DNA of 57,067 nt from Elusimicrobiota bacterium (GTDB lineage Bacteria; Elusimicrobiota; UBA8919). Below, one piece after another: positions 3,177 to 49,635 of this stretch. Position 1 is the stretch's first letter. Each line of letters starts with the position of its first letter. The stretch covers positions 1-57,067 of the forward strand of contig JAZDKR010000012.1 of NCBI GenBank assembly GCA_043802785.1. Direction: 5' to 3'. The notes beneath the pieces are model-generated. The model was not told where the DNA came from. It was given only the letters and a program-made list of their open reading frames with translations, and searched no databases. The translations under genes and the position numbers were made by a program.

Positions 3177-4164
3177 TAAAATTAAAATCAAACAAATCTT
3201 TATTTGTGATTTTTTCAACATTATTATTTATGTAATCCCTTAATGGTGTCATAATTTTTAAATTCTCTTTAAGAAATATCGGGGTAAAATCTATCTGTGT
3301 AATATCCTCGGGTATATAAAAATACTCTTTCAAATGTTCCCAATCTTTATCTCTCAATGTAGCAACCTTCCCTAAATAAATACTTGCCCATATCTTGCCT
3401 AATTTCGAATTTGATTTTTCTTTTAATAATTTGTTTTTAGCAATTTCAACATAGTTATTATCCAATTCAAATCCTACATAATTCCTACCCAATCTTTTTG
3501 ATGCAATCGCAGTTGTTCCAGTCCCAGCAAATGGATCTAAAACTATATCGTCTTCATCCGTTGACATCAAAACAATACGCTCCAACAAATGAAGAGGCAA
3601 TTGACAAGGATGTTCATCTCTAAATTTATTATGTTTTATTCTGTAAATATCAGACCACACATCAGACACTAAAGGACCAAACGGATGTAAAAGAGATTTT
3701 TTTCCACCATAATCTTTCATCAAATAACTACTTTTTCTTTCTCTTTTATGTGGACATCTTATTTCATAAAATTTTAACTTACTTTTTTCTTTTGCATAAA
3801 ATAAAATCCCATAATGTGCCGGTTGTAATGTCTTTCCCATAGGTGCAGTAGATGCGTTCCAGCAAATCCAATGTTTGAAGTCCGCAATTTTATTTAAGTA
3901 CACAGAATAGTAAGTCAACCATTTGGGTATATTATGTATAAATATTGACCCTGTTGATTTAGTAATCCTGACCATTTCAGAGACCCATTGTTCACACCAA
4001 TTTAGATATTCCTGAAACTCTAAACTATCCCTATAACCATTGTATTTTTTTTTCAAATTAAAAGGAGGATCAGCAAATGTCATATCAATACTATTGTCAG
4101 GAATAGTTTTTAATAATTCCAAACAATCGCCTTGAACAATATGATTTAAATATTTTTTTATCAT
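3172..4164 (-). CDS. DNA amino-methyltransferase (N4/N6, beta class), R-M system 1
   Basis: DPPF catalytic motif N-terminal; HPCQLP; VLDPFAGTGTT SAM-binding motif. Confidence 0.93.
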   Translation of the reverse strand: MIKKYLNHIVQGDCLELLKTIPDNSIDMTFADPPFNLKKKYNGYRDSLEFQEYLNWCEQWVSEMVRITKSTGSIFIHNIPKWLTYYSVYLNKIADFKHWICWNASTAPMGKTLQPAHYGILFYAKEKSKLKFYEIRCPHKRERKSSYLMKDYGGKKSLLHPFGPLVSDVWSDIYRIKHNKFRDEHPCQLPLHLLERIVLMSTDEDDIVLDPFAGTGTTAIASKRLGRNYVGFELDNNYVEIAKNKLLKEKSNSKLGKIWASIYLGKVATLRDKDWEHLKEYFYIPEDITQIDFTPIFLKENLKIMTPLRDYINNNVEKITNKDLFDFNFN

Positions 4165-4166
4165 TT

Positions 4167-5150
4167 TTATAAATTGAATGCTTTAAGCAAAAAATTTTGG
4201 AATCGTTCTAATTCGGATTTATGAAACGTAAAAACTTCGTCATATGCAGAGACCATCCTCTGTAAATCGCCTTTTCGTACATACCAACCAATTCCGTCAA
4301 CAAAACCAATAAATTTTGCTTTCGGATAATATTTCTTTATCAAACCATTAATATTCCCTTCGGTTTTAGATTTATCTCCTTGACCTGAAGATGTGGTAAC
4401 AAGAAATGAACTTTCAATAATAATTTTAGGTTTTTTCTTATTCGGAATGATAAAATCCATTGTACGCTTTGCGACTTTTTCATTTTTCAGTAGTTCTGTC
4501 AAATCGCCTTTTTCAAAAGTTAAATTTAAATCTTTTAGAATATTTTCCAACAAAAATTCCGGATTATTTTCCGCTTTACCGGAATATGAACCCTTTTCTT
4601 TATACCTTACAAGAGTATCAATCATTGCGGGAATATCAAATTTTAATTTTGATATACTTAATTTTTTAAGTTCAAATAACGGAAGTGTATCGGCAAGGAA
4701 AGGAATGGTAGAACCTTCAAAAAATATATTAACTATTCCTTTTCTAAAATAGGAATTTTCAGCGACTAATTTTGTAATTTTTGTGTCCGACCATTCTTTA
4801 ATCTCGGTGAGTTTTTCTTCTTCAATCCACCTTTCCCTATAAACTAATTTCGATAACTCCGGATTTTTAATAACTCTACTGATTGTAATCAATCTTTTTA
4901 AGTTTTCATTTGAAAAACCTGTTAAAGCAAGTAAACATCTCAATCCGTTAGATTTGTTTTCAAGCAATCTTTCAAAAATTTCTTTTTTTATTCCTTCGGT
5001 TTCAAGTTGATTTTTTAGAACAAGCAATGTCTCAGTGAGAGAATTAATATAACTTTCATACTTTTCCTGAAAAACAGGATTATAAAAATAGAAAGTATTT
5101 TTTTCAATTACCGTTTTAAATTTTTTATCATTGATTGAAAGTAACTTCAC
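4167..5150 (-). CDS. Type II restriction endonuclease, DpnII/MboI-like PD-(D/E)xK fold
   Basis: MDFII...IIIESSF...FIGFVDGIGW resembles DpnII-family motifs; adjacent MTase. GTG at 5150 overlaps the thrB TGA (ORF track starts at 5162). Confidence 0.75.
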   Translation of the reverse strand: MKLLSINDKKFKTVIEKNTFYFYNPVFQEKYESYINSLTETLLVLKNQLETEGIKKEIFERLLENKSNGLRCLLALTGFSNENLKRLITISRVIKNPELSKLVYRERWIEEEKLTEIKEWSDTKITKLVAENSYFRKGIVNIFFEGSTIPFLADTLPLFELKKLSISKLKFDIPAMIDTLVRYKEKGSYSGKAENNPEFLLENILKDLNLTFEKGDLTELLKNEKVAKRTMDFIIPNKKKPKIIIESSFLVTTSSGQGDKSKTEGNINGLIKKYYPKAKFIGFVDGIGWYVRKGDLQRMVSAYDEVFTFHKSELERFQNFLLKAFNL

Positions 5151-6070
5151 TCTTGCCTCCAAGCAACTCTTATCCCTTCGTTATCAAAATCGCAGACGAT
5201 ATACTTTGATTTTATGTTGTGTTTGTAAAATGCTTTCTGCATCGATTGACCGATCTTCGTTGCTGACCGCTGACCGCTGACAGCTAAAATTGTTGGACCG
5301 CTTCCCGAAATACAAACACCATATGCACCGGATTTTTTTGCAGAGTTAAAAACATCATCCATACCGGGAATAAGTTTTTTTCTATATGGCTGATGGAGTT
5401 TGTCGTCCATCGCAATTGAAAGCAAATCGTATTTTTTCTGAATAATTGCCGATACAAAAAGCGCAACCCTACTTGAATTGAAAACTGCATCTTTGTGCGA
5501 AACCATCTTCGGCAAAATATCTCTTGCCTTACTCGTTGATAATTCAAAATCCGGAATACACAAAACAGCTTTTAATTCCGATGGAATGTTTATTTTCGTG
5601 TATTTTACATTTTTTCCGTCAAAATTGCAAATGCACAACCCACCAAAAAACGAAGGCACGACATTATCCGGATGACCTTCAAGTTGTGAAACAATCTGAA
5701 TAATTTCATCTCCCGAAAGTTTTCCACCACAAATTTCATTAGCAGCAACTATCCCACCCAGACGGGCAGCAGCGGAGCTTCCGAGTCCTCTTGCCAAAGG
5801 AATGTTATTTATTAACTGCATGTGTAAAGTGTAAGGTGTAAAGTGTAAAGTATTAAAAACCTTTTTCATTGTCTGCCAAACGATATTTTTTCCGTCTCTC
5901 GGAAGCGTTTCCACCCCCTCTCCTACAATCTCAATTTTTAATTCTGAATTCTTAATTCTGAATTCTGACACTTCTATCTCGTTGTATAATTTTAACGATG
6001 CACCGAGCACATCAAACCCGCTGCCGAAGTTCGCCGTCGTCGCCGGAATCTTAATTTTTATTTTTTTCAT
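5147..6070 (-). CDS. thrB: Homoserine kinase
   Basis: PATTANFGSGFD, IPLARGLGSSAA (GHMP), EGHPDN, SGSGPT motifs. Confidence 0.96.
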   Translation of the reverse strand: MKKIKIKIPATTANFGSGFDVLGASLKLYNEIEVSEFRIKNSELKIEIVGEGVETLPRDGKNIVWQTMKKVFNTLHFTPYTLHMQLINNIPLARGLGSSAAARLGGIVAANEICGGKLSGDEIIQIVSQLEGHPDNVVPSFFGGLCICNFDGKNVKYTKINIPSELKAVLCIPDFELSTSKARDILPKMVSHKDAVFNSSRVALFVSAIIQKKYDLLSIAMDDKLHQPYRKKLIPGMDDVFNSAKKSGAYGVCISGSGPTILAVSGQRSATKIGQSMQKAFYKHNIKSKYIVCDFDNEGIRVAWRQE

Positions 6071-6087: not shown

Positions 6088-6183
6088 TCAATAATTCTCA
6101 CACAAAAGTTCGTAATACGCCATCGGATGAGCACATGCAGGACACTCTTCGGGAGCAGATTCACATTCATGGACATATCCACA
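6088..6183 (-). pseudogene. 3' fragment of rubrerythrin (rubredoxin-like domain)
   Basis: Translates CGYVHECESAPEECPACAHPMAYYELLCENY*, matching the rubrerythrin C-terminus; no N-terminal part. Confidence 0.8.
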
Positions 6184-6210
6184 ATGATATCCATTATTAT
6201 CTATTACTTT

Positions 6211-8685: not shown

Positions 8686-9585
8686 TTATTTATGAAGTAA
8701 TACTACAAAACAAGGGACTTTATAATTTTTTTCACCTTGAATTTTGTGCTTAAAGGGAAAATTAATCTCAATTGGTTTGTTCAAATTTGCATTGTTAATT
8801 ATTTCTCTGATTTTCTGTATTGATACATCTTCATCTATATAAACTACGAGCAATCTGGGATCTGCTCCGAATCTTCCTTCATCTTGATATTGGTAAAGAT
8901 ATTTTGCCACAAGAGAAGGATTCTTTATTGCTTCTTCACGCCACTTATCCTTAAAATGATTTTTGAATTGGTTTGTTGGGCTCTTCGCAACTTTTTGGTC
9001 AAAAGAAATTCCATCAATAAAAAAATCAACACCCTTTCTATGACTAAGGGTTGGCAATATGTTTTGGTTTTTTTCAAAAATTAACGTTTCAATAAAATCA
9101 TTTCTGACGGTGTTTATCTCTTTTATTCTCCGATATTTCACCGCTGCAATTTTTACTTTTTCGTCTTTTACCAATCCTGTGGATTTTTCCGAATTTATTC
9201 TTTGAACAAAACCGTCAAAATCACCTTGAGAAAACGGCCATTCAATTTTCCCCATATTCAATGTCTCCCACTCTTTTACTAGAAAATCCATTACGGCGTT
9301 TGCCTCCTTGCCGTTTTTATATTTCTCCGTTTCTTTAAATAAACCCCTGATGATTTTTTTGCTTAATTCATAATCCCAGTTATCAACAACTATTTTCCAG
9401 ATATTATTAGAACCAATATCCGGCACAGACAAACCTTTGTTTTTTCCTCGATTAAGCGTCTTGAAATTCAAACCGCTAACAGATTTTTCCTTATTCAAAC
9501 GCAACAAATAAGCAAGAGCATTTTCCTTGCTTCCTAAAATCTTTCTTGCCAGATCATCAGATAATTTTGATTTTATGTATTCCAT
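8686..9585 (-). CDS. Probable restriction endonuclease, R-M system 3
   Basis: GVDFFIDGISFDQK resembles a PD-(D/E)xK site; in the same run as MTase 10144-11091. Confidence 0.55.
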   Translation of the reverse strand: MEYIKSKLSDDLARKILGSKENALAYLLRLNKEKSVSGLNFKTLNRGKNKGLSVPDIGSNNIWKIVVDNWDYELSKKIIRGLFKETEKYKNGKEANAVMDFLVKEWETLNMGKIEWPFSQGDFDGFVQRINSEKSTGLVKDEKVKIAAVKYRRIKEINTVRNDFIETLIFEKNQNILPTLSHRKGVDFFIDGISFDQKVAKSPTNQFKNHFKDKWREEAIKNPSLVAKYLYQYQDEGRFGADPRLLVVYIDEDVSIQKIREIINNANLNKPIEINFPFKHKIQGEKNYKVPCFVVLLHK

Positions 9586-10143: not shown

Positions 10144-11091
10144 TCATATTGCCTTCTTCTGGAAAAACATTATGTATTCGTGCTTAAAAATATAAAATCC
10201 GCCGCCCAGGGCACGCCGTCGCCAAAGTTGTTCTGCATTTCTTTTTGCACGGTTGCCGGAGATGTTTTTTATCACAATACTTTTAAGTTTATATCCGTTT
10301 TCTAAAACTTTTTGCATTGTGTAAAAACTCAAAGGCACCCATTCACTCTGACTATATTTATCTCCCATAACAAGCACCAAGTATCTTTTTTCATCAAGAA
10401 GAGGATAGGTGTTTTTAACGACTTGTGAAAATTTATCCAAAAATTCTTCCGTTGTTTTTGTATTACATAAATCGTTCGGATTATCGCTAAATTTAATTAT
10501 ATCATGATACGGCGGATGCATTATAATGAGTTGAACTTTTTCAGCATTGTAATTTTGTCTCAATGTTTTTTTTACTTTTTCAATTGTTTCTTGGGCAGTA
10601 TTATCCCCTTCAATTATATCTGTTTTTACCTTGAAAGGATTTTGCTCTTGTGATATAAGTTCTTTTGCTCTTTTTACCATGTTTGGCAATAATTCCATAC
10701 CAATTCCGTGTCGGCCCAATTGTTTGCATTCAATTAAAGTTGTGCCACTACCTAAAAAAGTATCTAAAACAATTTCTCTTTTTTTTGTATATCTTAATAT
10801 CGCTTGATGCGGAATTTGAGGAACAAAATTGCCGTGATATTCACCGCTATGCGCACCGCTTTTATCACGAGCACCCAAAAGCCATAAACTATCGGTAATA
10901 ATGTCGCCGTAATCTTTCCAATTATTCAAATCAATATCATTGAAAATCGTAGTTTTCGGATGTTCGTATTTTTTTATATCCACCGAAGGCAAATCTTTTT
11001 CAACGATATATGACACACCCAATTCTTCACGAATTAGTTCGGATTTATCTTTTGTTTTATAAACAATTTTTTTCTGTTTTTTCTTTTTCAT
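10144..11091 (-). CDS. DNA amino-methyltransferase, R-M system 3
   Basis: [21 protein letters not shown], then HPPY (alpha order); ATG overlaps the thrC TGA. Confidence 0.9.
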
Positions 11092-12215
11092 AGCCCGATT
11101 GCTTTTATTATCTTCTTCATATCTGGCTCTAAAACCTTTGGCTGGGTTGCGGATTTGATTGCACGGTCAGGGTCTTTCAAGCCGTGACCGGTTAAGGTGC
11201 AAACAACAACAAGAGATTGGGAGATTGGGAGATTGGGAGATTGGGTTAAAAAACTTTTCTGAATATATTTTATCAGGCCGGCGAGGGAGGCGGCGGAGGC
11301 GGGTTCAACGAAAATTCCTTCAAGCGAGGCAAGTAATTTGTATGCTTTTATGATTTCAGCATCGGTAACCATATCAATTACGCCTTTCGATTCATCTCTT
11401 GCCTCTTCCGCTTTTTTCCAAGATGCAGGGTTGCCGATTTTTATTGCTGTTGCTATTGTTTTCGGATTTTTTATCGGTTTTCCTCGGACAATTGGTGCGG
11501 CACCTGACGCCTGAAAACCCATCATTTTTGGTAAGTCAGTGTAAGGTGTAAGGTGTAAGGTGTTAATTTTTTTCTTTACACTTGTCACTTTACACTTTAC
11601 ACTATATTCCTTGTATCCTTTCCAATACGCGGTGATATTTCCAGCATTGCCGACGGGTATAAAATGATAATCCGGTGTACGACCCAGAAAATCTACAATT
11701 TCAAACGCAGCAGTTTTTTGCCCTTCAATCCGATAAGGATTTAATGAATTCACAAGCGTTATTGGATATTTTTCCGTAATTTCAAGGACAATTTTCAGGG
11801 CATCGTCAAAATTTCCCTTGAGGGCGATAACCTTTGCACCGTGCATCATCGCCTGAGAAAGTTTTCCGAGAGCGATTGAACCGTCCGGAATTATAACGGA
11901 ACATTTTAGTCCTGCTTTCGCCGCATAAGCTGCCGCAGAAGCCGCAGTATTTCCGGTTGAAGCACATATTACCGCTTTGCTTCCCTCTTCAACCGCTTTT
12001 GAGATTGCCATGGTCATCCCGCGGTCTTTGAATGAGCCCGTAGGATTTGCGCCTTCAAATTTGAGATAGAGATTGAGATTGAGTCCGCCTAATGCGGATT
12101 CTAAATTCTTTGCACGTAAGAGTGGCGTATTGCCTTCGTAAAGCGTAATGATCGGCGTTTTATCTGTTACCGGCAAAAATTTTCTGTACCGTTCAATTAT
12201 TCCTTTGTAAATCAT
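11088..12215 (-). CDS. thrC: Threonine synthase
   Basis: [13 protein letters not shown]-lysine motif, ASTGNT, PVGNAGN, TGHGLKD; start at MIYKG (12215). Confidence 0.96.
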
Positions 12216-12345
12216 TTTCTTACCTTTTTTAATCGCGGAGCGAAGCCAAGTAGGTTCACTGGTAGCGAACAAGAAATTTCTGAAGAGCCTCTATTTGCGA
12301 CTTATTCGTTCCGAGCGACTTTGCCTTTCACCGCTCCCATTCCAG

Positions 12346-12507: not shown

Positions 12508-13806
12508 TCATTCCATTATTCTGAACATTACTGTTTTTGACTTAACAATCGGCAACTCATCAATTATTTTTAATGCTTTTCTTATGTTGCCTTCTTTCGT
12601 CTGATGTGTAAGTATTAAAACCGGAACGGCATGCTTTTTATGGCGTTCTTCCTGGAAGCATGCGGAAATGGAAACATTGTTTTTTCCCAGAATCCCGGAA
12701 ATTTTTGAAAGAACACCAGGTTTGTCGGCGGTTGAAAATCTCATATAATATTTTGACTCTATTTTTTCAACCGGTTTTATATTCAATTTTATTTTTTTGT
12801 CATATAAAATAAATGGAAATTTTCCAGCGGTGCCGTAAAAAATATTTGTTGCAAGATAAATTATATCCGATGCAACTGCACTTGCAGCAGCAGGTCCACC
12901 AGCCCCTTTCCCATAAAGCATTATGTCACCACAGGAATCACCATCAATATAAATCGCATTGTACTCGTTTTCAACCGCAGCCAGCGGATGCTCGGCATCA
13001 ATAAGTGTCGGATAAACAGTCGCAGAAATTTTACCGTTTTCATTTTTCACTGAAGCTAAAAGTTTCAACACATAACCAAACTCTGCTTTGGCATATTTTA
13101 CGTCAACAGGACTTATGTCTGATATTCCTTCACGGTAAATTTTTTCAAATGGCAGATGATTACCAAACGCAAGTGACGCTAATATTGAAAGTTTTTGTGC
13201 GGCATCAGAACCATCAAGGTCAAGAGATGGGTTCGCTTCGGCAAAACCAGATTTCTGTGCAAGTTTCAACGCCTCGTTAAAACCAAGTCCTGCGTCTGTC
13301 ATCTTTGTAAGTATGAAATTGGTCGTGCCGTTCAATATGCCGACGATTGATCGTATACTGTTTGCAGCAAGTCCTTCGTTTAATGACTGTATAACCGGTA
13401 TCCCAGCACCAACTGCTGCTTCAAAATATACCAAAACTTTTTTTCTTAACACCATAGAGAAAATTTCGTCCCAGCATTTTGAAAGCAACGCTTTGTTGGC
13501 AGTTACAATGTGCTTGCCACGATTCATCGCTTCAATAACTATTTTTTTAGAAATATCCACACCGCCGATTAATTCAACAATAATATCCACCGACGGGTCA
13601 GTAATTACTTTATTGATGTCTGTTGTGATGTTTTCGGTTGGTAAATTTAGTTGTTTAAGTTTAGATGTATCTTTATCGCATACCCATTTTATATTGATAC
13701 TGCAACCTACTTTCTTTTTTATGATATCTGAGTGTTTTTCTAAAATTTTAACGACATTAAGTCCGACGGTGCCACAACCAATAATCCCTATATTAACATT
13801 TTTCAT
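12508..13806 (-). CDS. hom: Homoserine dehydrogenase
   Basis: GCGTVG, VTANKAL, FEAAVGAGIP, NGTTNFIL, C-terminal ACT; start at MKNVNIG. Confidence 0.96.
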   Translation of the reverse strand: MKNVNIGIIGCGTVGLNVVKILEKHSDIIKKKVGCSINIKWVCDKDTSKLKQLNLPTENITTDINKVITDPSVDIIVELIGGVDISKKIVIEAMNRGKHIVTANKALLSKCWDEIFSMVLRKKVLVYFEAAVGAGIPVIQSLNEGLAANSIRSIVGILNGTTNFILTKMTDAGLGFNEALKLAQKSGFAEANPSLDLDGSDAAQKLSILASLAFGNHLPFEKIYREGISDISPVDVKYAKAEFGYVLKLLASVKNENGKISATVYPTLIDAEHPLAAVENEYNAIYIDGDSCGDIMLYGKGAGGPAAASAVASDIIYLATNIFYGTAGKFPFILYDKKIKLNIKPVEKIESKYYMRFSTADKPGVLSKISGILGKNNVSISACFQEERHKKHAVPVLILTHQTKEGNIRKALKIIDELPIVKSKTVMFRIME

Positions 13807-13887
13807 ATAAAACCAGATTACAGCGATTAACAACACGATTACAGCGATATTTCTTCATCGTTGTTATCGCTTTTTTTATCGTTGAAA

Positions 13888-15069
13888 TCAGCCCCTTACA
13901 AATGTTTTCAGACGCAATAATGCGTCGTGAAATCTGTTGAAGTGTGTGACCAATGCAAATCTCACATATCCCTCACCGTATTTACCAAAACCTGTTCCAG
14001 GCGAACAGACGACGCCCGTGGATTTAATAAGTTCTTCTGAAAATTTCAACGAACCACCTTTACTAAATTTTTCCGGCAACTTCGCCCAAAGATACATTGT
14101 TGCTTTCGGTTTCTCAACGATAAATCCGAGTTTATTCAACCCGTCACAAAATTTATCCCTTCTTTTTTTATACTCTTCAAGCGTTTCTTTCATAACATCA
14201 TCGGCTGAATTTAGTGCCGTAACTGCTGCCAACTGCAAAAATGTAGGAACACCGTAATCAATAAACGACTTGAGTTTTTCTAACGGTGCGATAGTTTTTG
14301 AATTGCCGAGACAAAATCCAACACGCCAACCGGCCATATTGTATGTTTTGGAAAGCGAGTAAAATTCTACTCCTACATCTTTTGCACCGGGTGTCTGTAA
14401 AAATGACGGTGCAACATATCCATTAAAAGTAACTTCGGAATATGCGTTATCGTGACAGACGATTATATCGTATTTTTTTGCAAACTGAACCACTTCCTTA
14501 AAAAAAGACAAATCATCTACAGTAGCACTTGTAGGATTGTTCGGGTAATTCAGGAACATCAGTTTCGCACGACGGGCAACTTTTTCCGGAATCTTTGTCA
14601 AGTCGGGCAGCCATTTATTTTTCGCCATAATCGGCATATTGTGAATTTTTCCACCAGCCAAAATTACACCGTTAAGATGCACTGGATACGCAGGATTTGC
14701 CACAAGTGCGATATCGCCGGGATCCAGATGCGCCATACACATATGGGCAATTCCCTCTTTGGAGCCAATTAAAACAAGTGCCTCATTGTCAGGATTCAAT
14801 TCAACATTAAATCTTTTCTTGTACCAGTCACAAATCGCTTTTCTCAATTTCGGCATTCCCTTCGCCTGAGGATAGCGATGCGTGCCGGGATGATTCTTTA
14901 CCGTGTCAATAAGCCGCTCAATAATAAAATCCGGGGTCGGAAGATCTGGATTCCCCATACCCAAATCAATAACATCTAAATTTTTTGAATGCGCCTCTTT
15001 TTTCAGAGTGTTTATTATTGAAAAAATATAAGGCGGCAATTTGCCAAGTTTTTTAGAATATGGTTTCAT
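13888..15069 (-). CDS. Class I/II PLP aminotransferase (AlaC / LL-DAP aminotransferase-like)
   Basis: DLGMGNPD, NYPNNPT, HDNAY, SLSKTYNMAGWRVG; usual neighbour of hom. Confidence 0.92.
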   Translation of the reverse strand: MKPYSKKLGKLPPYIFSIINTLKKEAHSKNLDVIDLGMGNPDLPTPDFIIERLIDTVKNHPGTHRYPQAKGMPKLRKAICDWYKKRFNVELNPDNEALVLIGSKEGIAHMCMAHLDPGDIALVANPAYPVHLNGVILAGGKIHNMPIMAKNKWLPDLTKIPEKVARRAKLMFLNYPNNPTSATVDDLSFFKEVVQFAKKYDIIVCHDNAYSEVTFNGYVAPSFLQTPGAKDVGVEFYSLSKTYNMAGWRVGFCLGNSKTIAPLEKLKSFIDYGVPTFLQLAAVTALNSADDVMKETLEEYKKRRDKFCDGLNKLGFIVEKPKATMYLWAKLPEKFSKGGSLKFSEELIKSTGVVCSPGTGFGKYGEGYVRFALVTHFNRFHDALLRLKTFVRG

Positions 15070-15086
15070 ATAAATACCACGGAACT
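15047..15086. repeat. 40-bp direct repeat, copy 1 (start of the aminotransferase gene)
   Basis: 36/40 identical to 17158-17197; both encode MKPYSKKL plus upstream bases. Confidence 0.92.
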
Positions 15087-15117
15087 GTCCTGTGTCTGTT
15101 CCGTGTTTTTTTATTGT

Positions 15118-15741
15118 TTAATCATTTACTATTTTATATTTTTCAAATTTTCCATTTTCATCAAACCATATAAGAAGCCATTCAGAATCAATATTAAACA
15201 AACTGGCCCTTTCAGGACCAAGAAAATATATTAAATCCCTGCCACTATCTTTGAAATAGGTTGCCTCTAAAGACGGACCAAGAAGTTTTTCCATTTCATC
15301 CCTACTTTTGCCTGGCAAAATATTTACCACAATGTCTTTAAGCATTTTTTCCCTTTTACTTATACCATTTACATCTTCTCCAGAAGATTTTGCCTTCCAT
15401 TCTATTGAATTAAATTTAAGCAAATTTGAACCAATTGGCAAACCTCCTAAAATGTAATTTCGTAAAAAGAAACTCAATGACATAAAAAAAACTGTTGTAA
15501 AAAATATTGTTAAAAATGAAACAAAAAACCAACTCTGTTTATGTTTTTTAGTTGCCCTGAATATAATTACAGGTATTGATATTATACCTAAAATTGGTGA
15601 AACAATACATATGACAATTAAAGATATTATGTAGAAAAAATTGGAAACACTTGAAAAAAAATCAATTGGAACAACATATCTTAACAATAATGGGCTCAAA
15701 TACAACAGAGTACAGAAAAAAGATATTAAAACAGTTTTCAT
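15118..15741 (-). CDS. Hypothetical membrane protein (possible immunity partner)
   Basis: About three N-terminal hydrophobic segments and a soluble C-terminus; ATGA coupling with the upstream gene. Confidence 0.7.
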   Translation of the reverse strand: MKTVLISFFCTLLYLSPLLLRYVVPIDFFSSVSNFFYIISLIVICIVSPILGIISIPVIIFRATKKHKQSWFFVSFLTIFFTTVFFMSLSFFLRNYILGGLPIGSNLLKFNSIEWKAKSSGEDVNGISKREKMLKDIVVNILPGKSRDEMEKLLGPSLEATYFKDSGRDLIYFLGPERASLFNIDSEWLLIWFDENGKFEKYKIVND

Positions 15742-17180
15742 TTTTGTTTTTTTGGCTTTTGTATCAACTTATCCATGTTATCAAGTATCTCCTTTGCATA
15801 TAAATCATCATCAATTATACCTTGATATTTTAATCTACTGCATATGTCTCTGCCAATACTATTGTTCCACAAATCCATTTCTATAGAAGCTTCATTATCC
15901 GGCTCACGGTTTAATTCATGATTATCGGCGATTTCTTTTGCAAAATCATAGCCAACATCTCTCGTCATTATTGCATTCCAATATGCGTGCAAAAATGCAT
16001 TACTTGTGTCGTCGTCTTTACTATATCCAAATTCTTTATATGTACGGTTGAAAGCATTGGTTTTATTTTTACAGGCGGTTATTATATCGTAAATTCTGTC
16101 AATATTCTTTACGTTCTCTACTAACGTCTTTGCATCTCCTAATCCACCATATCCAATCAAACTTAAAATATCCCCGAGTAAATAGGTAAATTCGTATTGA
16201 AGATTATTGTAATATTTGTTAAAATCAGGGACGTCAAAACCAAGCGACTGGACGTCCTTTCTTAAAGGTTCGAAATATGAATTTATCTCAATCGGATTAT
16301 CGGTTGTATTTACAAAAGTGACTGTTGCATTTGAATAACCATTGGCTTTTACCAATGCGTAGATTTCATAACCTTCCGCTTTAACTGGTTTATCATTGTT
16401 TGGCTTTTTATACTTTGAATTTAAGTTTTCAATTCTTTTTGCATATTCATGGTAATCATAAACTTTTCCCTTTATTATTTCCACTACTTCTTTTACACTT
16501 TCCACTTCCGACGGTAAGTATTTACCAATAAGTTTCCCAAGTCCTTCTTTGGCAACTTCCTTGAAATAATTGTTGACTTTCAAATAAGCATTTTTATCTA
16601 CCTTAAGCAGTAGTTCCCGCTGGTCACTCGGCAAATCTTCAAATTTTACTTTATTCTGCAGATTCCATATAACATTTTGTTTGAGATGTTGGTCAACTGC
16701 CTCTTTTGTATTGGTATATCGCATTATCTCGGAATAGAGCGGGATATCTGGAACTCTGTTCGTAAGAATATATGGTTCATCATCGCTTGGTGACGCTTTT
16801 TGAGAAGATAGGCAATAAGTATTCAACTTTAATGTCAATTTGGTTTTTGGCGGGATTACTATTGTGCCGTTGTCTTTATTGATTACATTTACGGCAGCTG
16901 AGTGTTTTTTGTACTCTTCTACAATCGGAGTCAGTTCTTTAATTATATCATCATAATCTTTATCTGTAAGTTTATCGTCATAGCGTTGTATCCGTTCCCT
17001 TAATGTTTGTATCTTGTTTGTTGTATTATTAATGTCTGTTGGAGTATATGAAATATCCTGCAACGAAGAGTAATCATCGTTTTCCAGATATTTTACTTTT
17101 AACAAACCCGTGGCGCAAGATGAGTTCAGCAACAAACATACCGCCACTAAATAATTGAGTTTTTTTGAATATGGTTTCAT
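15738..17180 (-). CDS. Putative lipoprotein with C-terminal DUF6973-like domain
   Basis: Lipobox-like LLNSSC; C-terminal NAFLHAYWNAIM...HE...MDLWNNSIGR motif. Confidence 0.7.
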   Translation of the reverse strand: MKPYSKKLNYLVAVCLLLNSSCATGLLKVKYLENDDYSSLQDISYTPTDINNTTNKIQTLRERIQRYDDKLTDKDYDDIIKELTPIVEEYKKHSAAVNVINKDNGTIVIPPKTKLTLKLNTYCLSSQKASPSDDEPYILTNRVPDIPLYSEIMRYTNTKEAVDQHLKQNVIWNLQNKVKFEDLPSDQRELLLKVDKNAYLKVNNYFKEVAKEGLGKLIGKYLPSEVESVKEVVEIIKGKVYDYHEYAKRIENLNSKYKKPNNDKPVKAEGYEIYALVKANGYSNATVTFVNTTDNPIEINSYFEPLRKDVQSLGFDVPDFNKYYNNLQYEFTYLLGDILSLIGYGGLGDAKTLVENVKNIDRIYDIITACKNKTNAFNRTYKEFGYSKDDDTSNAFLHAYWNAIMTRDVGYDFAKEIADNHELNREPDNEASIEMDLWNNSIGRDICSRLKYQGIIDDDLYAKEILDNMDKLIQKPKKQK

Positions 17181-17197
17181 ATAGATACCGCAGAACT
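17158..17197. repeat. 40-bp direct repeat, copy 2 (start of the cargo lipoprotein gene)
   Basis: See 15047-15086. Confidence 0.92.
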
Positions 17198-17220
17198 AAC
17201 GCGAAACTATTAGCGTCGGT

Positions 17221-17484
17221 TTAGCGTTCAGGTTCTGCGTTTGTTTCGCGGATTTCCGGGAGTCGTTTAGAGAATTCAAAAATCACAAGTCCAATTAGAA
17301 TACATGCAAGTCCATAAACGACTTCAAAGCCGGCGTATTTTGACCATTTTACAAGCGGAACAAATTCGGATTCAGGAAGTCCGACGAAAACATCGTATAA
17401 TCCTTTTAACGCAACGATTATTCCCCAGACAGCAAAAATCCATCCGCTGCTCTTAAAAACCGCACGATATTTAATCTTTTGCAT
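17221..17484 (-). CDS. Small two-TM hypothetical protein
   Basis: AAGGA RBS; two hydrophobic segments; C-terminus encoded by a 12-mer repeat palindrome (17187-17255). Confidence 0.7.
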   Translation of the reverse strand: MQKIKYRAVFKSSGWIFAVWGIIVALKGLYDVFVGLPESEFVPLVKWSKYAGFEVVYGLACILIGLVIFEFSKRLPEIRETNAEPER

Positions 17485-17527
17485 TTAATTATTCCTTGCG
17501 AACTGTCTATTCCTATCACTGTACTGG

Positions 17528-17865
17528 TTCACAATTTCGGCAACAACTTGGCAACCCGTTTTAGTTTATCATAAGGTGTCATACTGAACTTGTTTCAGCA
17601 TCAGCATTTGCTCCTTGTCTTTTCGCAAGCGGAAGGCAGGGATATTATGATATCGTTGAAAAACCCCAATCTTTTGAACGATTTGGCAGTTTTAGGTTAT
17701 CAGTTGAAATCGTTTTGACCGCAATGTCCGACGAGCAAAGCGAGGAGTTTTGCGGTCTGATTGAAACTGATAACCGTTAAAAAACTGCCTTTAAGTGAAA
17801 AAGATGGGTTTTTCAATAATATCATTATACAAAAAATCCTGAGAAACCGTTACCGAAATTGTGAA
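17528..17865. mobile_element. MITE-like element with 17-bp terminal IRs and an internal ~180 bp foldback
   Basis: TTCACAATTTCGGCAAC (17528-17544) / GTTACCGAAATTGTGAA (17849-17865), one mismatch; internal hairpin 17647-17825; truncates vapC. Confidence 0.7.
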
Positions 17866-18029
17866 GTATTACACTCATCACATTGTTGGATCGCACGCTT
17901 AAATACCTCATAAATGCTAATTGAGGGAATAACTAATTTAGATATGTTCTCAATTGCGGGTGTAAAGAAATTTGCGTTTGGACCATCAGCGAAATACTCA
18001 AGCCATCCGGAAGAATCCACGATATTCAT
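17850..18029 (-). pseudogene. vapC: Truncated VapC (PIN) toxin
   Basis: MNIVDSSGWLEYFADGPNA...VIPSISIYEVFKR is a PIN N-terminus; only 59 aa, and the stop lies inside the element IR. Confidence 0.85.
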
Positions 18030-18232
18030 ATGCGGTCTGCCTCCCGATTTACTGTTGTATCAATACCTTTGAGAAAACCACGCATTTCCTTGACTGCCTT
18101 CAGAGGAATCAGTTCAATGCGATTTTCGTATTGAATAACTTGAATTTTCTGTCCTGGACAAACACCGAGCGATTCACGAATTATGCGAGGAATCACAACT
18201 TGAAACTTTGGCGAAACTGTTAATGTTTCCAT
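18026..18232 (-). CDS. AbrB/MazE-type antitoxin (VapB)
   Basis: VSPKFQVVIPRIIRESLG swapped-hairpin motif; ATGA-coupled to vapC. Confidence 0.9.
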   Translation of the reverse strand: METLTVSPKFQVVIPRIIRESLGVCPGQKIQVIQYENRIELIPLKAVKEMRGFLKGIDTTVNREADRI

Positions 18233-18256
18233 ATAATCTCCTTAATTGTTCTTATA

Positions 18257-18315
18257 TTCTAACGATAGATCTCAGCGGCGACGTACTCGCCGTCCACTGC
18301 ACCGATTTGTTAGAG
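18257..18315 (-). other. Integron attC site
   Basis: Minus strand CTCTAAC (contains GyrI stop)...GCAGTGGACGGCGAGTACGTCGCCGCTGAG...GTTAGAA; 59 bp imperfect palindrome. Confidence 0.85.
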
Positions 18316-18903
18316 GGTTTTGTTAATTTTCAACCTCACGATTGTTTTCAAATTTTCTGGTTTTGTCTTTCGGAAATCATTTAAATAGATATCATGAGTA
18401 TCTTTCATAGATGAATATCCTTTACTTTTAATGAAATTGAGTAATATCTCCAATGTTTCATTCATTTTTTCATAATGACCTTTATGCATTATTTGGGCAC
18501 ATAACCCTTCATCAAATTTTTCAAATCTCAGTTTTAAGATTGAGGGAAGTGTCTGTTTTAATGCCAATTTTTCCAAAGCTTCGTTATATAATTGTTTTGT
18601 TACATATTTGGGTTGCATTTGTAGCATTGTCCACCTAAAGGTTTTTCTTTCTCGATTGAGTGTCCATAGCAACTCAAGTAGCATTATCCTATAATCAATA
18701 TCTATTCTTGGTCTAATCATAAATTTCATTGTATAAGCTACAGGATAAATAGTGCCTGCTGCATCTTGAAATTCCTGTTCTGAAGGATGTCCCTTACCAT
18801 CAATCATAAGAAAATTCATAGCCGGAACTTTTACAATTGTTGGTTCCTTTGTCGAAGCGAAATAAAGTTGTTTCAGTTCTTTTCTATAATCAATCTTTTT
18901 CAT
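18310..18903 (-). CDS. GyrI-like small-molecule-binding protein (cassette)
   Basis: KIDYRKELKQLY, FLMIDGKGHP, QIMHKGHY, HDIYLNDFRKTKPENLKTIVR. Confidence 0.85.
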   Translation of the reverse strand: MKKIDYRKELKQLYFASTKEPTIVKVPAMNFLMIDGKGHPSEQEFQDAAGTIYPVAYTMKFMIRPRIDIDYRIMLLELLWTLNRERKTFRWTMLQMQPKYVTKQLYNEALEKLALKQTLPSILKLRFEKFDEGLCAQIMHKGHYEKMNETLEILLNFIKSKGYSSMKDTHDIYLNDFRKTKPENLKTIVRLKINKTL

Positions 18904-18913
18904 ATTTGTTTCC

Positions 18914-18972
18914 CTCTACCGACTGAGTTCAGCGGCGACGTACTCGCCGTCCACTGCAACGAATAGTTAGAC
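18914..18972 (-). other. Integron attC site (R' mutated GTT>GGT)
   Basis: Minus strand GTCTAAC...GCAGTGGACGGCGAGTACGTCGCCGCTGA...GGTAGAG; core identical to the 18257 site. Confidence 0.82.
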
Positions 18973-19009
18973 ATTTAACAGTAACTATCCATATTTTATT
19001 AGTATAGTT

Positions 19010-19288
19010 TTATGCTACTTCCGTTTTGAGTAATTTGTTAGTCGCTGTTTTGCCATTTGTCCAAAGTTCATATTCACTCAGGTCAATATCATCACTCCAC
19101 GAAATACCATAACCACCTGTATCAACATGGACGGCATTGAAAAAGGCAGGACTCCCGAGCAAATGAAACTGCGATCTGGCAAGAAGAGACTCACAATCAT
19201 AAATTTTCTTAACTCCGCTATCAAAAGTAACAAGCAACCGTACCCCACCAATGGTTTTTACAGTTTTAATTCTGGGTATCTGTTCCAT
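19010..19288 (-). CDS. DUF2442-family protein (TA partner)
   Basis: LLVTFDSG..K.YD....L....F..L....FF..V.VD.GGYGISW..DIDLSE.ELW; start at MEQIPR. Confidence 0.85.
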   Translation of the reverse strand: MEQIPRIKTVKTIGGVRLLVTFDSGVKKIYDCESLLARSQFHLLGSPAFFNAVHVDTGGYGISWSDDIDLSEYELWTNGKTATNKLLKTEVA

Positions 19289-19295
19289 ATAAAGT

Positions 19296-19550
19296 TTACT
19301 CCAATCCAGGAAGTTGCTTAAATTCCTGACGATTCCACATTTCCAACAATTCTTTTTGGTAAAAACCAGCCCATTCTTTGACAAGCCGTTGAGCTCTGCC
19401 AGGCAAATCCCCTTCAATCATCTCCAATGATTCTATAGCAAAAACAGCATTGAACTCTCCGTAAATTGTATGAAAATGAGGAACGCCATGTTCGCTTTGA
19501 CTGAAGTACATCTTGATTATAACTCCGTAAAATCTGGCTATAACTGGCAT
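19296..19550 (-). CDS. DUF4160-family protein (TA partner)
   Basis: MPVIARFYGVIIKMYF..EH..PHFH..YGE...LVKEWA......L..MW. Confidence 0.9.
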   Translation of the reverse strand: MPVIARFYGVIIKMYFSQSEHGVPHFHTIYGEFNAVFAIESLEMIEGDLPGRAQRLVKEWAGFYQKELLEMWNRQEFKQLPGLE

Positions 19551-19570
19551 ATGTTTATCCTCCTTTTATT

Positions 19571-19631
19571 GTCTAACGTTTAATCTCAGCGGCGACGATT
19601 TTTTGCCATTCGCTGGATTGATTTGTTATGA
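19571..19631 (-). other. Integron attC site
   Basis: Minus strand TCATAAC (HNH stop)...CCAGCGAATGGC...GTCGCCGCTGAG...GTTAGAC, followed by AGGAGG and the ATG of the next cassette. Confidence 0.85.
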
Positions 19632-19937
19632 CTTTTCTTTGTTTTTTCTTCTTGTTTCAGCAGCCTTTCTGCCCGCATCTTTCATTCGTTTATGCCAGTC
19701 AACAACCTTCGGGCGATCACGCATTATCTTGATTGTTTCAGAGGATATTAGATTCAGATCATGCATTTTGTGGCAATTGGGGCAAAGAATGACAAGATTG
19801 TTCACCTCATTATTGTTCCTATCACCATCAACATGAGCAACTTCCAGAACTGATGGTATACCGAAACCGCAGTGTGCACACAGTATGTTATATGATTCAA
19901 ATGCCATTTTACGGTAATTGACTCGTTTTGTTGTCAT
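19626..19937 (-). CDS. HNH endonuclease (cassette)
   Basis: CAHCG...LEVAHVDGDRNNN...NLVILCPNCH. Confidence 0.9.
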   Translation of the reverse strand: MTTKRVNYRKMAFESYNILCAHCGFGIPSVLEVAHVDGDRNNNEVNNLVILCPNCHKMHDLNLISSETIKIMRDRPKVVDWHKRMKDAGRKAAETRRKNKEKS

Positions 19938-20088
19938 CCATTTTTCAACAAAAATAACTAACTCCCTGTCTGGGTCTGGTTCATTTTTTTGTTATGCTCA
20001 ATTTTTACTCCACCGTCTTTTTCTTTCCTTTGTCTCGCCTCAATTCTGCTTTCAATGTCTGACCCCAATTACCTCTCCCGAGCAATTA

Positions 20089-21147
20089 CTACTTTTTTCC
20101 CAAATTTTCAGGTCTTAATGACCGTACAGCAGCGCCTGCTCTCCACATTTCGGAGTCCCTAATCTGTTTTAATTCTTTATCTAATTTTTCTCTATAATCA
20201 GAAGCGCCGTTTGCTTCAATTACTCTCTTTGTTTCTTCACCATTGTGAACTTTGTTGTATAATTCTTCAAATACCGGCTCTACCGCTTTCCTGAATTTAG
20301 GCATCCAATCAAGAGCACCTCTCTGAGCAGTCGTTGAACAGTTGGCGAACATCCAATCCATACCGTTTTCGGCAACAAGTCGTATCAAACTCTGCGTAAG
20401 TTCTTCAACGGTTTCGTTGAACGACTCAGACGGACTGTGTCCGTGTTTTCTCAAAAGATTATATTGTGCATCCATTATACCGGCTAACGCACCCATCAAG
20501 GTTCCTCTCTCACCGGTAAGGTCTGAGTAAACCTCTTTTTCAAAAGTTGTCGGGAAAAGGAAGCCAGAACCAACGGCAATACCGAGAGCAAGTGTCCTAT
20601 CCATGGCTTTACCAGTAGCATCTTGAAAAACGGCGAAACTTGAATTTATTCCGCTGCCATTCAAAAAATTCCTTCTTACCGATAATCCAGAGCCCTTCGG
20701 TGCAACTAATATAACATCAATATCTTTTGGCGGGATAACTTTTGTCTGGTCCTTGTAGACAATTGAAAACCCGTGTGAAAAATACAATGCCTTTCCTTTT
20801 GTAAGCAACGGTTTTAATTTCGGCCAATATGCCATTTGACCTGCATCGGAAATCAGATACTGTATTATTGTTCCTCTTTGTGCCGCTTCTTCAATACTGA
20901 AAAGAGTTTTACCGGGTATCCAACCGTCTTTAACGGCTTTATCCCAATATATTTTTTCTTCGGGTTTCTGTCCAATTATAACATTTATTTTGTTATCCCT
21001 CATATTCAGTGATTGCGCCGGTCCCTGAACACCATATCCGATTACGGCAACAACTTCATTTTTCAGAACTTCCTGTGCTTTTGACAACGGAAATTCGTCC
21101 CTTGTAACAACTTCTTCCATAACCCCACCAAAATCAATCTTCGCCAT
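20089..21147 (-). CDS. ilvC: Ketol-acid reductoisomerase (Bacteroidetes/fungal-type)
   Basis: IGYGVQG, FSHGF, VAPKGSG, SDLTGERG, CSTTAQRGA. Confidence 0.96.
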   Translation of the reverse strand: MAKIDFGGVMEEVVTRDEFPLSKAQEVLKNEVVAVIGYGVQGPAQSLNMRDNKINVIIGQKPEEKIYWDKAVKDGWIPGKTLFSIEEAAQRGTIIQYLISDAGQMAYWPKLKPLLTKGKALYFSHGFSIVYKDQTKVIPPKDIDVILVAPKGSGLSVRRNFLNGSGINSSFAVFQDATGKAMDRTLALGIAVGSGFLFPTTFEKEVYSDLTGERGTLMGALAGIMDAQYNLLRKHGHSPSESFNETVEELTQSLIRLVAENGMDWMFANCSTTAQRGALDWMPKFRKAVEPVFEELYNKVHNGEETKRVIEANGASDYREKLDKELKQIRDSEMWRAGAAVRSLRPENLGKK

Positions 21148-21200
21148 TGCTCTACCCTCCTATTTTGAAAATTTTGCTAACACCTATTTTATATCTCTAT

Positions 21201-21368
21201 CTAAAAATATTTTTGAGGATTTAATTTTACTACTTTTCCCTTCTCCCACACCACAATTGGTATTCCTTTGGACTTGTGGTCTGCAATCACTCCCGCAACT
21301 GCTTTTTTGATTGCCCATTCGGCTTTTTTTCCTTCGGACGATAATTTGTAAACATTTTTTTTTTTCAT
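21201..21368 (-). CDS. 55-aa partner of the zeta-like ATPase
   Basis: Manual translation MKKKNVYKLSSEGKKAEWAIKKAVAGVIADHKSKGIPIVVWEKGKVVKLNPQKYF; GGAGG RBS inside the upstream gene end. Confidence 0.75.
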   Translation of the reverse strand: MKKKNVYKLSSEGKKAEWAIKKAVAGVIADHKSKGIPIVVWEKGKVVKLNPQKYF

Positions 21369-21369
21369 T

Positions 21370-21951
21370 CTATTCCACCTCCATCTTTATCCTCTCAAAA
21401 AGTTTTTTGTTAATGTATTGATAACCTTCTTTTGTTTTTTCAAAAATTGCTCGGGGTTTTGTGGACGAGTTGTCAAAAATAACAAGACAATCTATCAAAT
21501 CTATGTAAATATGAAAAAGATTATACAATGTTCTTGAAAAACGACGTTTAACATCGGAAGCAGGGACATTATGCCCGCCTTCCAACACTCTGTTTTTTAT
21601 TCTTTCTATAGCAAGCTGAAAGTTGGGAATCCATAAATAATACATATGTATGCGATACCCAGCAGATTTCATCTGACGAAGTAAAATAGAATACGAACGA
21701 CCTGACAAAGTTGTTTCAAAAGCAAATGTTTTTCGTTCTCTAAAAAGTTCGTGAATTCTTTTTAACACTAATCTGCCAGATTGGATAGTAACTTTTTCAG
21801 GAGCAAACGGTGAAAGTCCCTGGGCGATTAAATCGGCATTTATAAAATCCACATTGCCGACAAATTTAGGAAGAAATTCTCGTGCAAATGTTGTTTTTCC
21901 TGCACCATTTGAGCCGGCTATTAAATAGACATCTGGATTTGTTTTATTCAT
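21370..21951 (-). CDS. Zeta-toxin-like / predicted ABC-type P-loop ATPase
   Basis: AGSNGAGKTT, INADLIA, FETTLSG, RVLEGGHNVP. Confidence 0.88.
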   Translation of the reverse strand: MNKTNPDVYLIAGSNGAGKTTFAREFLPKFVGNVDFINADLIAQGLSPFAPEKVTIQSGRLVLKRIHELFRERKTFAFETTLSGRSYSILLRQMKSAGYRIHMYYLWIPNFQLAIERIKNRVLEGGHNVPASDVKRRFSRTLYNLFHIYIDLIDCLVIFDNSSTKPRAIFEKTKEGYQYINKKLFERIKMEVE

Positions 21952-25568: not shown

Positions 25569-26348
25569 TTATTTTTTCATTCTATCTGAAATAATTTCTG
25601 CAACTTTTTTGCCACTCATAAGCATTCCACCGAAAATAGGACCCATTCTCTGTGCACCAAATATAGCATTACAACACATCCCACATGAATAGACCCCCGG
25701 ATATATTTCTTTTGTATTTTCAAGAATCTTTTTCTCCCCTATTTCGGCATTCATCTCTTTTTCTCCCATAATTTTACCAGTTTTTGTTTTTAATTTACAA
25801 CCATTTTTGTCCTGAAGTTTATGGGCAACTTCTGCTGGATGGCCTGTTGCATCTATAACATATTTTGTTCCCACTGTGATAGGGTCAACATGGAGTTTGG
25901 CAATTTCAACAGCACTCCAATTTACAACTAATCCGCTGACCCTTCCCTTTGTAATCATAACATCTTCAGCACTCATTAAATTAAATATCTTTACTCCTGC
26001 TTTTGATGCTTTGGAACAAATTGTTGAAACCGTCTCAACCGAATCAGCACAATAATAACCATCACCCATATCTTTTGTTTTTACATCAAATTCATCGAGA
26101 ATTTTTTTTGCATTATTTTGAATGACGATTTCGTTAAACATTATTCCGCCGCCCCACATCCCACCGCCTATTGAAAGTTTCCTCTCAAAAAGAATTACTT
26201 TTACATTTTCTTTTGCAAGATAATAAGCAGCCGTTAATCCGGCCGGGCCACCGCCAACTACGACAACATCGGACTTCAAACTATCAAGCAACTTTTCCGA
26301 AAATTGCTTGATTATTAATTCGGATATTTTGACATCATCTAATACCAT
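25569..26348 (-). CDS. thi4: Sulfide-dependent thiazole synthase Thi4, copy 2
   Basis: [33 protein letters not shown]; start at MVLDD. Confidence 0.93.
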
Positions 26349-26517
26349 TTTACTATCCTCCTTTTTAGAGTTCCTGTTAGTCATTTTAATAAGTTAGCCG
26401 ACTAAAACATGCCCCGATAAAATCGGGGTCGGGCATAATTTATTCCCCACTTCAGTTGGGACAAATCTTCCAAATTCCGATACTATAATTTATGTACATA
26501 AGCGTTCAATCCAGTTG

Positions 26518-30539: not shown

Positions 30540-30576
30540 TTTTTATCCACCTCCAAAAAAAATTTGGTTTTGTAAT

Positions 30577-49518: not shown

Positions 49519-49635
49519 ATTTACCTCACTCCGTTCGGTAACGCTAAACTGACGCCGAACTTGTAACACCCCGCGAAACTGACGCCAAACAGTTCCGCGT
49601 CTGTTTTGCGTTTTCAGTTTTGCGTCTGTTCCGCG

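Follow-up and report, generated by a model that had tools for sequence, protein, structure and literature searches.

SXT/R391 integrative and conjugative elements (ICEs) reside in prfC, where near-identical direct repeats lie at the 5' end of this conserved gene and the gene remains functional (PMC2791158, accessible part of the source). Another described route, SPDIR (short-patch double illegitimate recombination), needs no dedicated enzyme: ectopic single strands anneal at extended microhomologies, tolerant of mismatches and gaps, and patches of 3 to ~100 bp are taken from intragenomic or extragenomic donors (bioRxiv 10.1101/2023.11.22.568220, accessible part of the source). Here we report a two-gene cassette, lip-mem, in a 57,067-nucleotide (nt) stretch of an Elusimicrobiota draft genome (contig JAZDKR010000012.1, positions 1 to 57,067; hereafter the window), which lies between a gene for a small membrane protein (sm) and an aminotransferase gene (AT) and is flanked by direct repeats that cover the start region of AT. 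The locus shares with the prfC-borne ICEs the direct repeats that rebuild a gene, but here the insert holds no tyrosine or serine recombinase and no integrase, there is no reused attachment (att) site, the insert measures 2 kb rather than ~100 kb, and the duplicated start also serves the cargo by in-frame fusion. As a mechanism it would come closest to microhomology-mediated illegitimate recombination, with one unusual result, namely that the cargo uses the duplicated initiation region; a literature search on insertions that duplicate a gene start gave nothing on this phenomenon among the matches listed. The features on which the argument turns are the following, the whole gene set of the region lying on the minus strand in the list of open reading frames (ORFs).

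17221-17484, minus strand: sm, native gene for a small membrane protein of 87 amino acids (aa), found by tblastn in relatives
17189-17250, minus strand: palindrome A (hairpin A), a member of a dispersed family resembling repetitive extragenic palindromes (REP), covering the last codons and the stop of sm
17158-17197, minus strand: upstream (left) repeat copy, which gives lip its spacer, ATG and codons 1-8
15738-17180, minus strand: lip, first cargo gene, 480-aa lipoprotein-like protein with Pfam DUF6973 (E 4e-20)
15118-15741, minus strand: mem, second cargo gene, 207-aa membrane protein from the ORF list, of no known family
15078-15105, minus strand: small hairpin B, consisting of CACGGAAC, a 12-nt loop and GTTCCGTG, with an A-run before it
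15047-15086, minus strand: downstream (right) repeat copy, consisting of a REP 3' arm, the spacer GTATTTAT, the ATG and 20 nt of AT
13888-15069, minus strand: AT, the host aminotransferase, 393 aa, N-terminus MKPYSKKLGKLPPYIF

A repeat search found a single two-copy direct repeat at this locus (15047-15086 and 17158-17197), 40 nt long, 36/40 identical and spaced by 2111 nt, so that 2071 nt of insert (15087-17157) lie between the copies. Each copy comprises 17 nt upstream of a start codon, the ATG and 20 coding bases; on the coding strand it reads as a hairpin 3' arm, an 8-nt spacer (GTATCTAT or GTATTTAT), the ATG and the 20 bases. The lip and AT proteins consequently both open with MKPYSKKL, which in lip is followed by NYLVAVCLLLNSSC. 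The coding parts are the same at 22/23 bases, with the same codon choice at 6/7 codons, and a search of the 1.56-Mb assembly for the 23-nt start string, with up to 3 mismatches tolerated, finds these two places and no other (none for a reversed-pattern control). When the start region was compared with the 3.5 kb downstream of it, the best ungapped match scored 28, as against a maximum of 13 in 30 shuffles. Behind the downstream copy the AT ORF is full-length, whereas the lip ORF relies on the copy for its ATG and for the basic n-region of its signal peptide; the mem ATG and the lip stop overlap by 4 nt, and the distance between sm and AT is 2151 nt. A first-pass annotation of this DNA had described such a repeat around the start region, two proteins beginning alike (ORFs 13888-15069 and 15738-17180), an upstream copy put to use by the cargo and a downstream copy that restores the host gene, and in all of these it was accurate.

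The junction is empty in relatives. An AT orthologue was detected in 30 of the 41 genomes searched, counting the window's own (G000, a 1.56-Mb draft in 93 contigs, 78% complete), and the orthologues of 11 relatives are 79-91% identical. By tblastn, sm lies directly upstream of AT, at 9-409 nt, in 10/10 genomes of the same family and also in G012 and G014, and ilvC lies upstream of sm in the same-family genomes wherever the flank extends that far. None of the ten carries lip or mem between sm and AT, tblastn matches at this site being confined to the window's own locus, and the longest spacer, 409 nt in the same-genus genome G001, contains no remnant of the cassette. As the site is empty in all ten, the cassette is an insertion into the sm-AT junction, which agrees with what had been proposed from the window alone.

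The copied start comes from AT. In the 10 family genomes the AT protein begins with MKPYSKKL in 4/10 and with MK.YSK[KR]L in 9/10, and the coding part of the downstream copy agrees with the AT starts of relatives; by comparison, none of 17 distinct N-termini of lip homologues is MKPYSKKL. Since the AT orthologues keep this N-terminus, we regard the AT copy as the original, copied toward lip. The insert is, to judge from its composition and distribution, foreign: its G+C fraction per 400-nt window is 0.25-0.37 compared to 0.375-0.435 inside the AT gene, and lip is patchy in the phylum (13/401 sampled genomes), where it is often multicopy, located at contig ends or fragmentary. Thus, the observation, the insertion and the AT ancestry claimed in the first-pass annotation all stand, and what it had said of mechanism fares differently, as described below.

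To explain the locus, we propose, with moderate confidence and with the balance close to even, an illegitimate insertion at short homologies, guided by microhomology or by REP sequence, in which the two joints overlapped on the target and no enzyme encoded by the element took part. A promoterless cassette would have been inserted between sm and AT, its left joint falling among the first codons, at a point where the start that the cassette brought with it would have been similar to that of AT (family pattern MK.[YIL]SK; paralogue DNA ATGAAA..TAC..AAAGCACTC), and its right joint in the REP-type hairpin 8 nt before the AT ATG, by way of REP-arm homology. With the left joint downstream of the right joint on the target, the stretch made of REP arm, spacer, ATG and 7 2/3 codons would come to stand on both sides. 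The upstream copy would then provide an ATG and a basic signal-peptide n-region for a 5'-truncated lip ORF, the downstream copy would leave AT intact, and selection would have kept a product in which neither gene was broken and the cargo was placed in an existing transcript. Survivorship may suffice to explain why starts are covered by the repeats, because where genes are tightly packed or overlap, both are spared only if the insertion duplicates their junction.

The joints themselves are consistent with such an event. A paralogue of lip on contig C18 of the same genome, used as the comparison sequence, starts ATG AAA TAC AAA GCA CTC AAT (MKYKALN), and the window tracks it from CTCAAT onward, directly past AAAAAACT, which would place the left joint in a stretch of microhomology: ATGAAA, TAT, AAA and CT are common to the left joint and the start of the paralogue. 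At the right joint the REP arm agrees at 7/9 positions. Between hairpin A and the lip ATG no foreign 5' untranslated region (UTR) is left, as it should be if the insertion event itself gave rise to the repeat. Neither Pfam nor NCBIfam gives a recombinase in the insert, their matches being DUF6973 for lip and nothing for mem. An insertion with overlapping joints would also account for the exact end of the repeat at the borders of foreign and native sequence, for a REP part that is only family-like, and for a parallel case in which this architecture brings the cargo no benefit.

Such a parallel is found in genome G010 (locus L067; the same locus is also L032, on G010:C12), where a homologous cassette, consisting of lip and another membrane partner, has a SLOG-family gene on one side and dtd on the other. 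Flanking it at both ends is the 16-nt repeat AATAAAATGAAA[A/G]CGG (15/16 identical; L067:3969-3985 and 6182-6197), which spans the stop of the SLOG-family gene, the dtd ATG and 2 1/3 codons. At the corresponding empty site of G005 nothing separates the two host genes, which share an ATGA overlap, the sequence reading ...GATAAAATGAAAGCGGTTATT. The left copy in G010 forms only a 6-codon mini-ORF, the lip gene there keeping its own intact start, and the insertion site has no hairpin. This second case argues for the earlier suggestion of an insertion that duplicates a start region.

If an insertion of this kind took place, a compact genome whose junctions overlap or are filled with hairpins could take up promoterless foreign genes while an essential operon stays unbroken, a short duplication of the junction both preserving the host gene and giving the newcomer a working start. 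For annotation the case is a caution: where neighbouring genes have the same N-terminus, recombination may have left it as a scar.

Several observations weigh against this explanation. The repeat is no clean duplicate: of its 4 mismatches, 2 lie in the hairpin arm and are offset by complementary changes in the partner arm, outside the repeat. Because the arm mismatches are compensated in this way, the REP part of the repeat reflects homology at the level of the family rather than a copied target. The REP end followed by the spacer GTATTTAT and ATGAA is also found before an ATP-synthase epsilon-like gene (G002) and a permease-like gene (G008), and the AT-specific part is limited to CCATATTC[A/T]AAAAAACT (16/17). 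P0002, encoded on a contig of 2577 nt and, at 69% identity, the nearest homologue of lip, starts with MKSYSKML, so that the fusion may predate this genome or the likeness may be partly native; in a tree built without the first 25 residues, P0001, P0002 and the C18 paralogue form an unresolved trio. The G010 repeat is marginal by score (13, with a shuffle maximum of 12) and carries weight because of its position and the empty site. In the 20 other lip loci examined, 18 of them scorable, a boundary repeat was found in G010 only, the other 17 not rising above shuffles. The third case, a groEL-start copy described below, misfits the simple geometry of an insertion with duplication. Finally, SPDIR patches as described measure 3 to ~100 bp, not 2 kb: the lengths of the copies seen here and in the parallels (16, 40 and 122 nt) come near that range, but SPDIR was described for microindels in Acinetobacter baylyi, at frequencies <1e-12, and the accessible part of the source describes no cargo of 2 kb with duplicated flanks. 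A second start-like match, on G001:C10, proved not to be a start and was set aside.

A competing account, which we judge unlikely, has the copying follow the insertion: a patch of 30-40 nt from the AT start, 2.1 kb downstream, would have overwritten lip's own start through ectopic gene conversion, template switching or SPDIR, primed on the REP arm, ended at AAA..CT and kept for better initiation. It has a precedent of the same geometry in the same genome. Contig C38 of G000 (L055) has two perfectly matching copies, 122 nt each, of a direct repeat (8771-8892 and 10403-10524) made up of 4 nt upstream of groEL and its first 39 1/3 codons; the upstream copy heads, in frame, the foreign body of a 351-aa secreted protein, with groES and a REP element between copy and source. 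The body continues with the apparent remainder of a signal peptide (VLIMFSYTLPSAAQ) and amounts to a ~300-aa domain known from giant surface proteins, of which there are short stand-alone homologues with ordinary signal peptides. It is present in 0/40 relatives, the groEL start is single-copy in 9/10 relatives (with no match in the tenth), and the 1.62-kb insert that holds the upstream copy and the body stands in place of the promoter-like TTGACA...TATAAT region that lies upstream of groES in relatives. Patch copying is the better fit for this groEL case, and patches of 3 to ~100 bp are described for SPDIR (bioRxiv 10.1101/2023.11.22.568220, accessible part).

Identical start-anchored stretches are also found in unrelated exported-protein genes of G000 that are not adjacent to each other. 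MKRIRTVPIL is common to three of them (G000:C44:11196, C44:13712 and C76:2599(-), 0-based offsets) and MKKVSKVAV to two (G000:C9:11379 and C31:16045(-), likewise 0-based); their first 26-32 nt from the ATG are identical, with no likeness upstream or further downstream. Genome-wide, 12 gene pairs are alike at 25 or more of the 27 start nt, compared to 1, 0, 0 and 0 pairs at internal offsets of 60-240, and among the 12, 4 come from repeat elements that were taken for ORF starts. All this lends support to patch copying, but at the AT locus no foreign 5' UTR precedes the lip ATG, so that a patch must have overwritten the UTR exactly, and the left copy in G010, a useless 6-codon mini-ORF before a native start, fits a by-product of insertion better than a patch under selection.

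A wider version, to which we likewise attach only a low probability, is that a recurrent process in this Elusimicrobiota lineage, linked to replication or to REP elements, equips incoming genes that lack a promoter and encode exported proteins with the start codon and first codons of resident housekeeping genes. The donors so far may be AT, groEL and dtd, and an interchangeable signal-peptide n-region may make the graft tolerable. If true, foreign cassettes would have a general way of joining operons and of becoming translatable at once; with three instances in two related genomes it can be searched for systematically.

Returning to overlapping-joint insertion, its right joint would lie in a REP-type hairpin, and the first-pass annotation had taken the hairpins as possible anchors of insertion and the small one as a remnant of the large. 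Each repeat copy indeed abuts a hairpin that ends 8 nt before the ATG, in the same orientation at both ends, and both fold stably (hairpin A, 17189-17240, -24.2 kcal/mol, z -3.6; hairpin B, 15078-15105, -12.6 kcal/mol, z -4.4). The arms differ, however, being CACGGAAC/GTTCCGTG in hairpin B versus CGCAGAAC/GTTCTGCG in hairpin A, and B therefore reads as a separate, minimal REP-type hairpin rather than a sequence remnant of A. Its variant has one copy in the genome, and its 5' arm with the start of the loop (CACGGAACAGACACAG) shows a 16-nt identity with the REP at this locus in G008.

Palindrome A has 25 matches in its own genome, 8 of them elsewhere at E <= 1e-5, and the family is built from units such as CGCGAAAC and GTTTCGCG. 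We defined 41 REP-like elements; in 32/41 an ATG with an open frame of 80 codons or more lies no further than 30 nt from one end, in no element from both ends, compared to 13.8% of 3000 random positions with a start in range. The start-proximal elements lie 3-29 nt upstream of the start codon and point toward it; a further example occupies window positions 49542-49635, and in relatives the same intergenic sites hold unit variants of their own. It is thus the rule in this genome for such hairpins to precede a start, and they are generic elements. As in systems of REP elements with REP-associated tyrosine transposases (RAYTs), they are dispersed imperfect palindromes of 8-nt units, one to several hundred bases per locus, in a genome with Y1 genes; unlike in those systems, they stand almost always 3-29 nt upstream of a start, directed toward it, an unusual and strongly start-proximal position for a REP-like family. 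The last codons and the stop of sm (window 17221-17262) are themselves encoded by REP 5' units, as they are in G008 and G001 with their own unit variants, and the sm C-terminus would accordingly be rewritten by whichever REP variant is resident. Since these elements are start-proximal genome-wide, and since the G010 site lacks any hairpin, the reading of the palindromes as anchors of this cassette is not supported.

These results bear on the possibility of a dedicated mechanism, in which an enzyme acting in trans would integrate cassettes at start-proximal hairpins, duplicating the initiation region; a REP-associated Y1 transposase and a tyrosine recombinase are the candidates. In its favour are the like-oriented hairpins at both ends, 8 nt before each ATG, the start-covering repeats at two independent cassette insertions, four Y1_Tnp matches over the Pfam cut-off in the genome, and a RAYT-like gene that adjoins a lip homologue in G015 (63 bits, below the NCBIfam cut-off of 80). 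Yet the 5' hairpins are generic and, with REP elements preceding 32/41 unrelated starts, their presence here is expected anyway, and the duplication is 40 nt long, when Y1 (IS200/IS605-type) transposition is not known to make a target duplication. The repeats moreover differ in length (40 vs 16 nt) and in sequence, the G010 site is hairpin-free, and the site received no insert in 10/10 relatives. Because repeat lengths and sites differ and no recombinase lies in the insert, we disfavour the site-specific mechanism implied in the first-pass annotation and consider it quite improbable.

Comparison with other mobile systems points the same way. Unlike transposons and insertion sequences, the insert has no transposase and its duplications measure 40 nt here and 16 nt in G010; no terminal inverted repeat pairs the insert ends among the longest 25 of 57 inverted repeats. 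The reuse of one site expected of an integrative element is likewise missing in this family, with 0/10 genomes carrying an insert here and the G010 and G000:C18 cassettes located elsewhere. Integron cassettes resemble lip-mem in that promoterless cargo relies on resident signals, and three attC-like repeats lie next door, in the gap between ilvC and sm. Unlike them, lip-mem has no attC-like site, its hairpins are unrelated to the three attC-like repeats, and hairpin B has no GTTRRRY-type box; no integron integrase (IntI) over the cut-off was found in the 78%-complete assembly, and a 40-nt duplication is not known from integron insertion.

Alternatively, there might have been no copying at all, the lip N-terminus being native, the upstream likeness REP consensus and the identity a coincidence thrown up by a very large scan. 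Starts of the lip family do resemble that of AT: besides MKSYSKML in P0002 they include MKKISKKF (G188), MKSLSKIK (G172) and MKSISIRN (P0006), a pattern MK.[YIL]SK; REP arm, spacer and ATGAA recur before the unrelated genes of G002 and G008 noted above; and with so many windows scanned, rare coincidences are, on a rough estimate, expected. The first-pass annotation's expectation that lip homologues lack MKPYSKKL held to the letter (0/17), while P0002 and others share part of the N-terminus, so that what it named as a refutation came true in part. In scans of alignment A1, covering metagenome contigs (6 loci) and genome contigs (13 loci), no start with MKPYSKKL or MKSYSKML was found. Chance would nevertheless have to produce identity at 22/23 coding bases, codon choice included at 6/7 codons, next to the sole gene with this start and with just two copies in the whole 1.56 Mb; at the two positions among the first 8 residues where P0002 and the window's lip differ, the change is toward the AT sequence, and the perfect 122-nt start copy in the same genome shows that copying is real. 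We therefore regard a coincidence as very improbable. A chimeric join in this metagenome-assembled genome, conceivable in a 93-contig draft of 78% completeness, is scarcely credible, since each junction keeps the reading frame, the conserved gene pair of the cassette is complete, sm and AT lie on either side of it in the expected order and orientation, and the longest exact run common to the copies is 17 nt, below the word sizes in common use by assemblers.

The lip protein combines a conserved N-terminal region of ~320 aa with a C-terminal DUF6973. Across the family (alignment A1 and Pfam) the C-terminal domain varies: 9 members end in DUF6973, P0010 ends in Peptidase_M23 and L072 in a domain of another kind. 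Homologues of mem (27-52% identity) directly follow lip homologues in seven loci (L038, L039, L042, L049, L052, L068 and L069), two partner types, mem and mem2, being found after different lip genes. The arrangement thus shows the layout of polymorphic toxin-immunity systems, with a conserved delivery region, a variable C-terminus and a small gene after it, and mem, which matches nothing in Pfam, NCBIfam or PADLOC, is probably an immunity-type partner. PADLOC gave no match for lip or the groEL-fused protein either.

The lip-family profile matches, weakly (E 0.0044), the Bacteroides fragilis type VI secretion system (T6SS) effector BteO (PDB 9UU0), with the common motifs AFRH..W, HE.NP and DL.NN.IGR. 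BteO is a non-enzymatic effector whose target is OmpA and whose immunity protein is BtiO (PMC12541434, accessible part of the source). The lip family resembles the BteO/BtiO type of polymorphic toxin-immunity pair in its conserved N-terminus, exchangeable C-termini (DUF6973, peptidase M23 and the L072 domain), small partner gene, orphan tip and motif match; it differs in that lip has a lipoprotein-type signal peptide and no T6SS context. Because a Foldseek search of the full-length lip model (predicted local distance difference test score, pLDDT, 83.6) against PDB found nothing usable (best E 0.6), we take a toxin/immunity role of lip-mem as a lead and not as a result. For DUF6973, which no paper found by our search names, the likeness to an interbacterial effector domain of the BteO type would be a first functional lead. 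The lip fusion protein would presumably be exported and its gene co-transcribed with the host cluster, and its expression may have benefited from the graft.

Three further observations concern the lip family. Around residues 393-400 the window's lip reads AFLHAYWN where the eight other domain-carrying members and BteO have AFRH, a conserved arginine being replaced. An orphan DUF6973 fragment (G000:C18:2389-2733, L035/L037), with one TAG inside, lies right after the paralogue's partner gene, a layout characteristic of toxin tips that have been displaced. A gene or fragment of lip type is also found, in another family of the phylum, ~2 kb from an orthologous AT, on the opposite strand (L072:532-1749 and 3995-5440; G036:C15:61745-62056), which may be coincidence or old linkage.

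The host cluster, which serves amino-acid biosynthesis, has the conserved order ilvC-sm-AT-hom-thrC, its remaining members being the following.

21147-20089, minus strand: ilvC, first in transcription order
Gap between ilvC and sm, minus strand: accessory stretch of 2.6 kb
12508-13836, minus strand: hom, after AT
11088-12272, minus strand: thrC, after hom

AT itself is assigned by its family matches (Pfam Aminotran_1_2, E 2e-62; NCBIfam PRK09276, 524.9 bits with a cut-off of 507) to the class I/II aminotransferases, LL-diaminopimelate aminotransferase subfamily. Promoter-like sites show no excess in 13500-21500 (30 vs 28.6 expected), and Rfam at gathering thresholds gave 0 matches over the whole window.

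In the ilvC-sm gap, three attC-like imperfect palindromes (18235-18314, 18892-18971 and 19566-19628; 657 and 674 nt apart) share an outer stem TCTAAC ... GTTAGA, unpaired spacers and an inner stem, and the repeat at 18235-18314 matches its own three copies only. The small accessory genes between them comprise a MazE-like gene with a truncated PIN, a GyrI-like gene, DUF4160/DUF2442 and HNH. The array looks like an integron-type cassette cluster without an integrase, and the gap is short in G002, G003, G008, G009 and G011, the five relatives with a flank that extends as far as ilvC. Elsewhere in the window, two 259-aa ORFs 4.2 kb apart have their first ~68-85 nt in common (26284-26351 and 30475-30542), which suggests paralogues or a local duplication.

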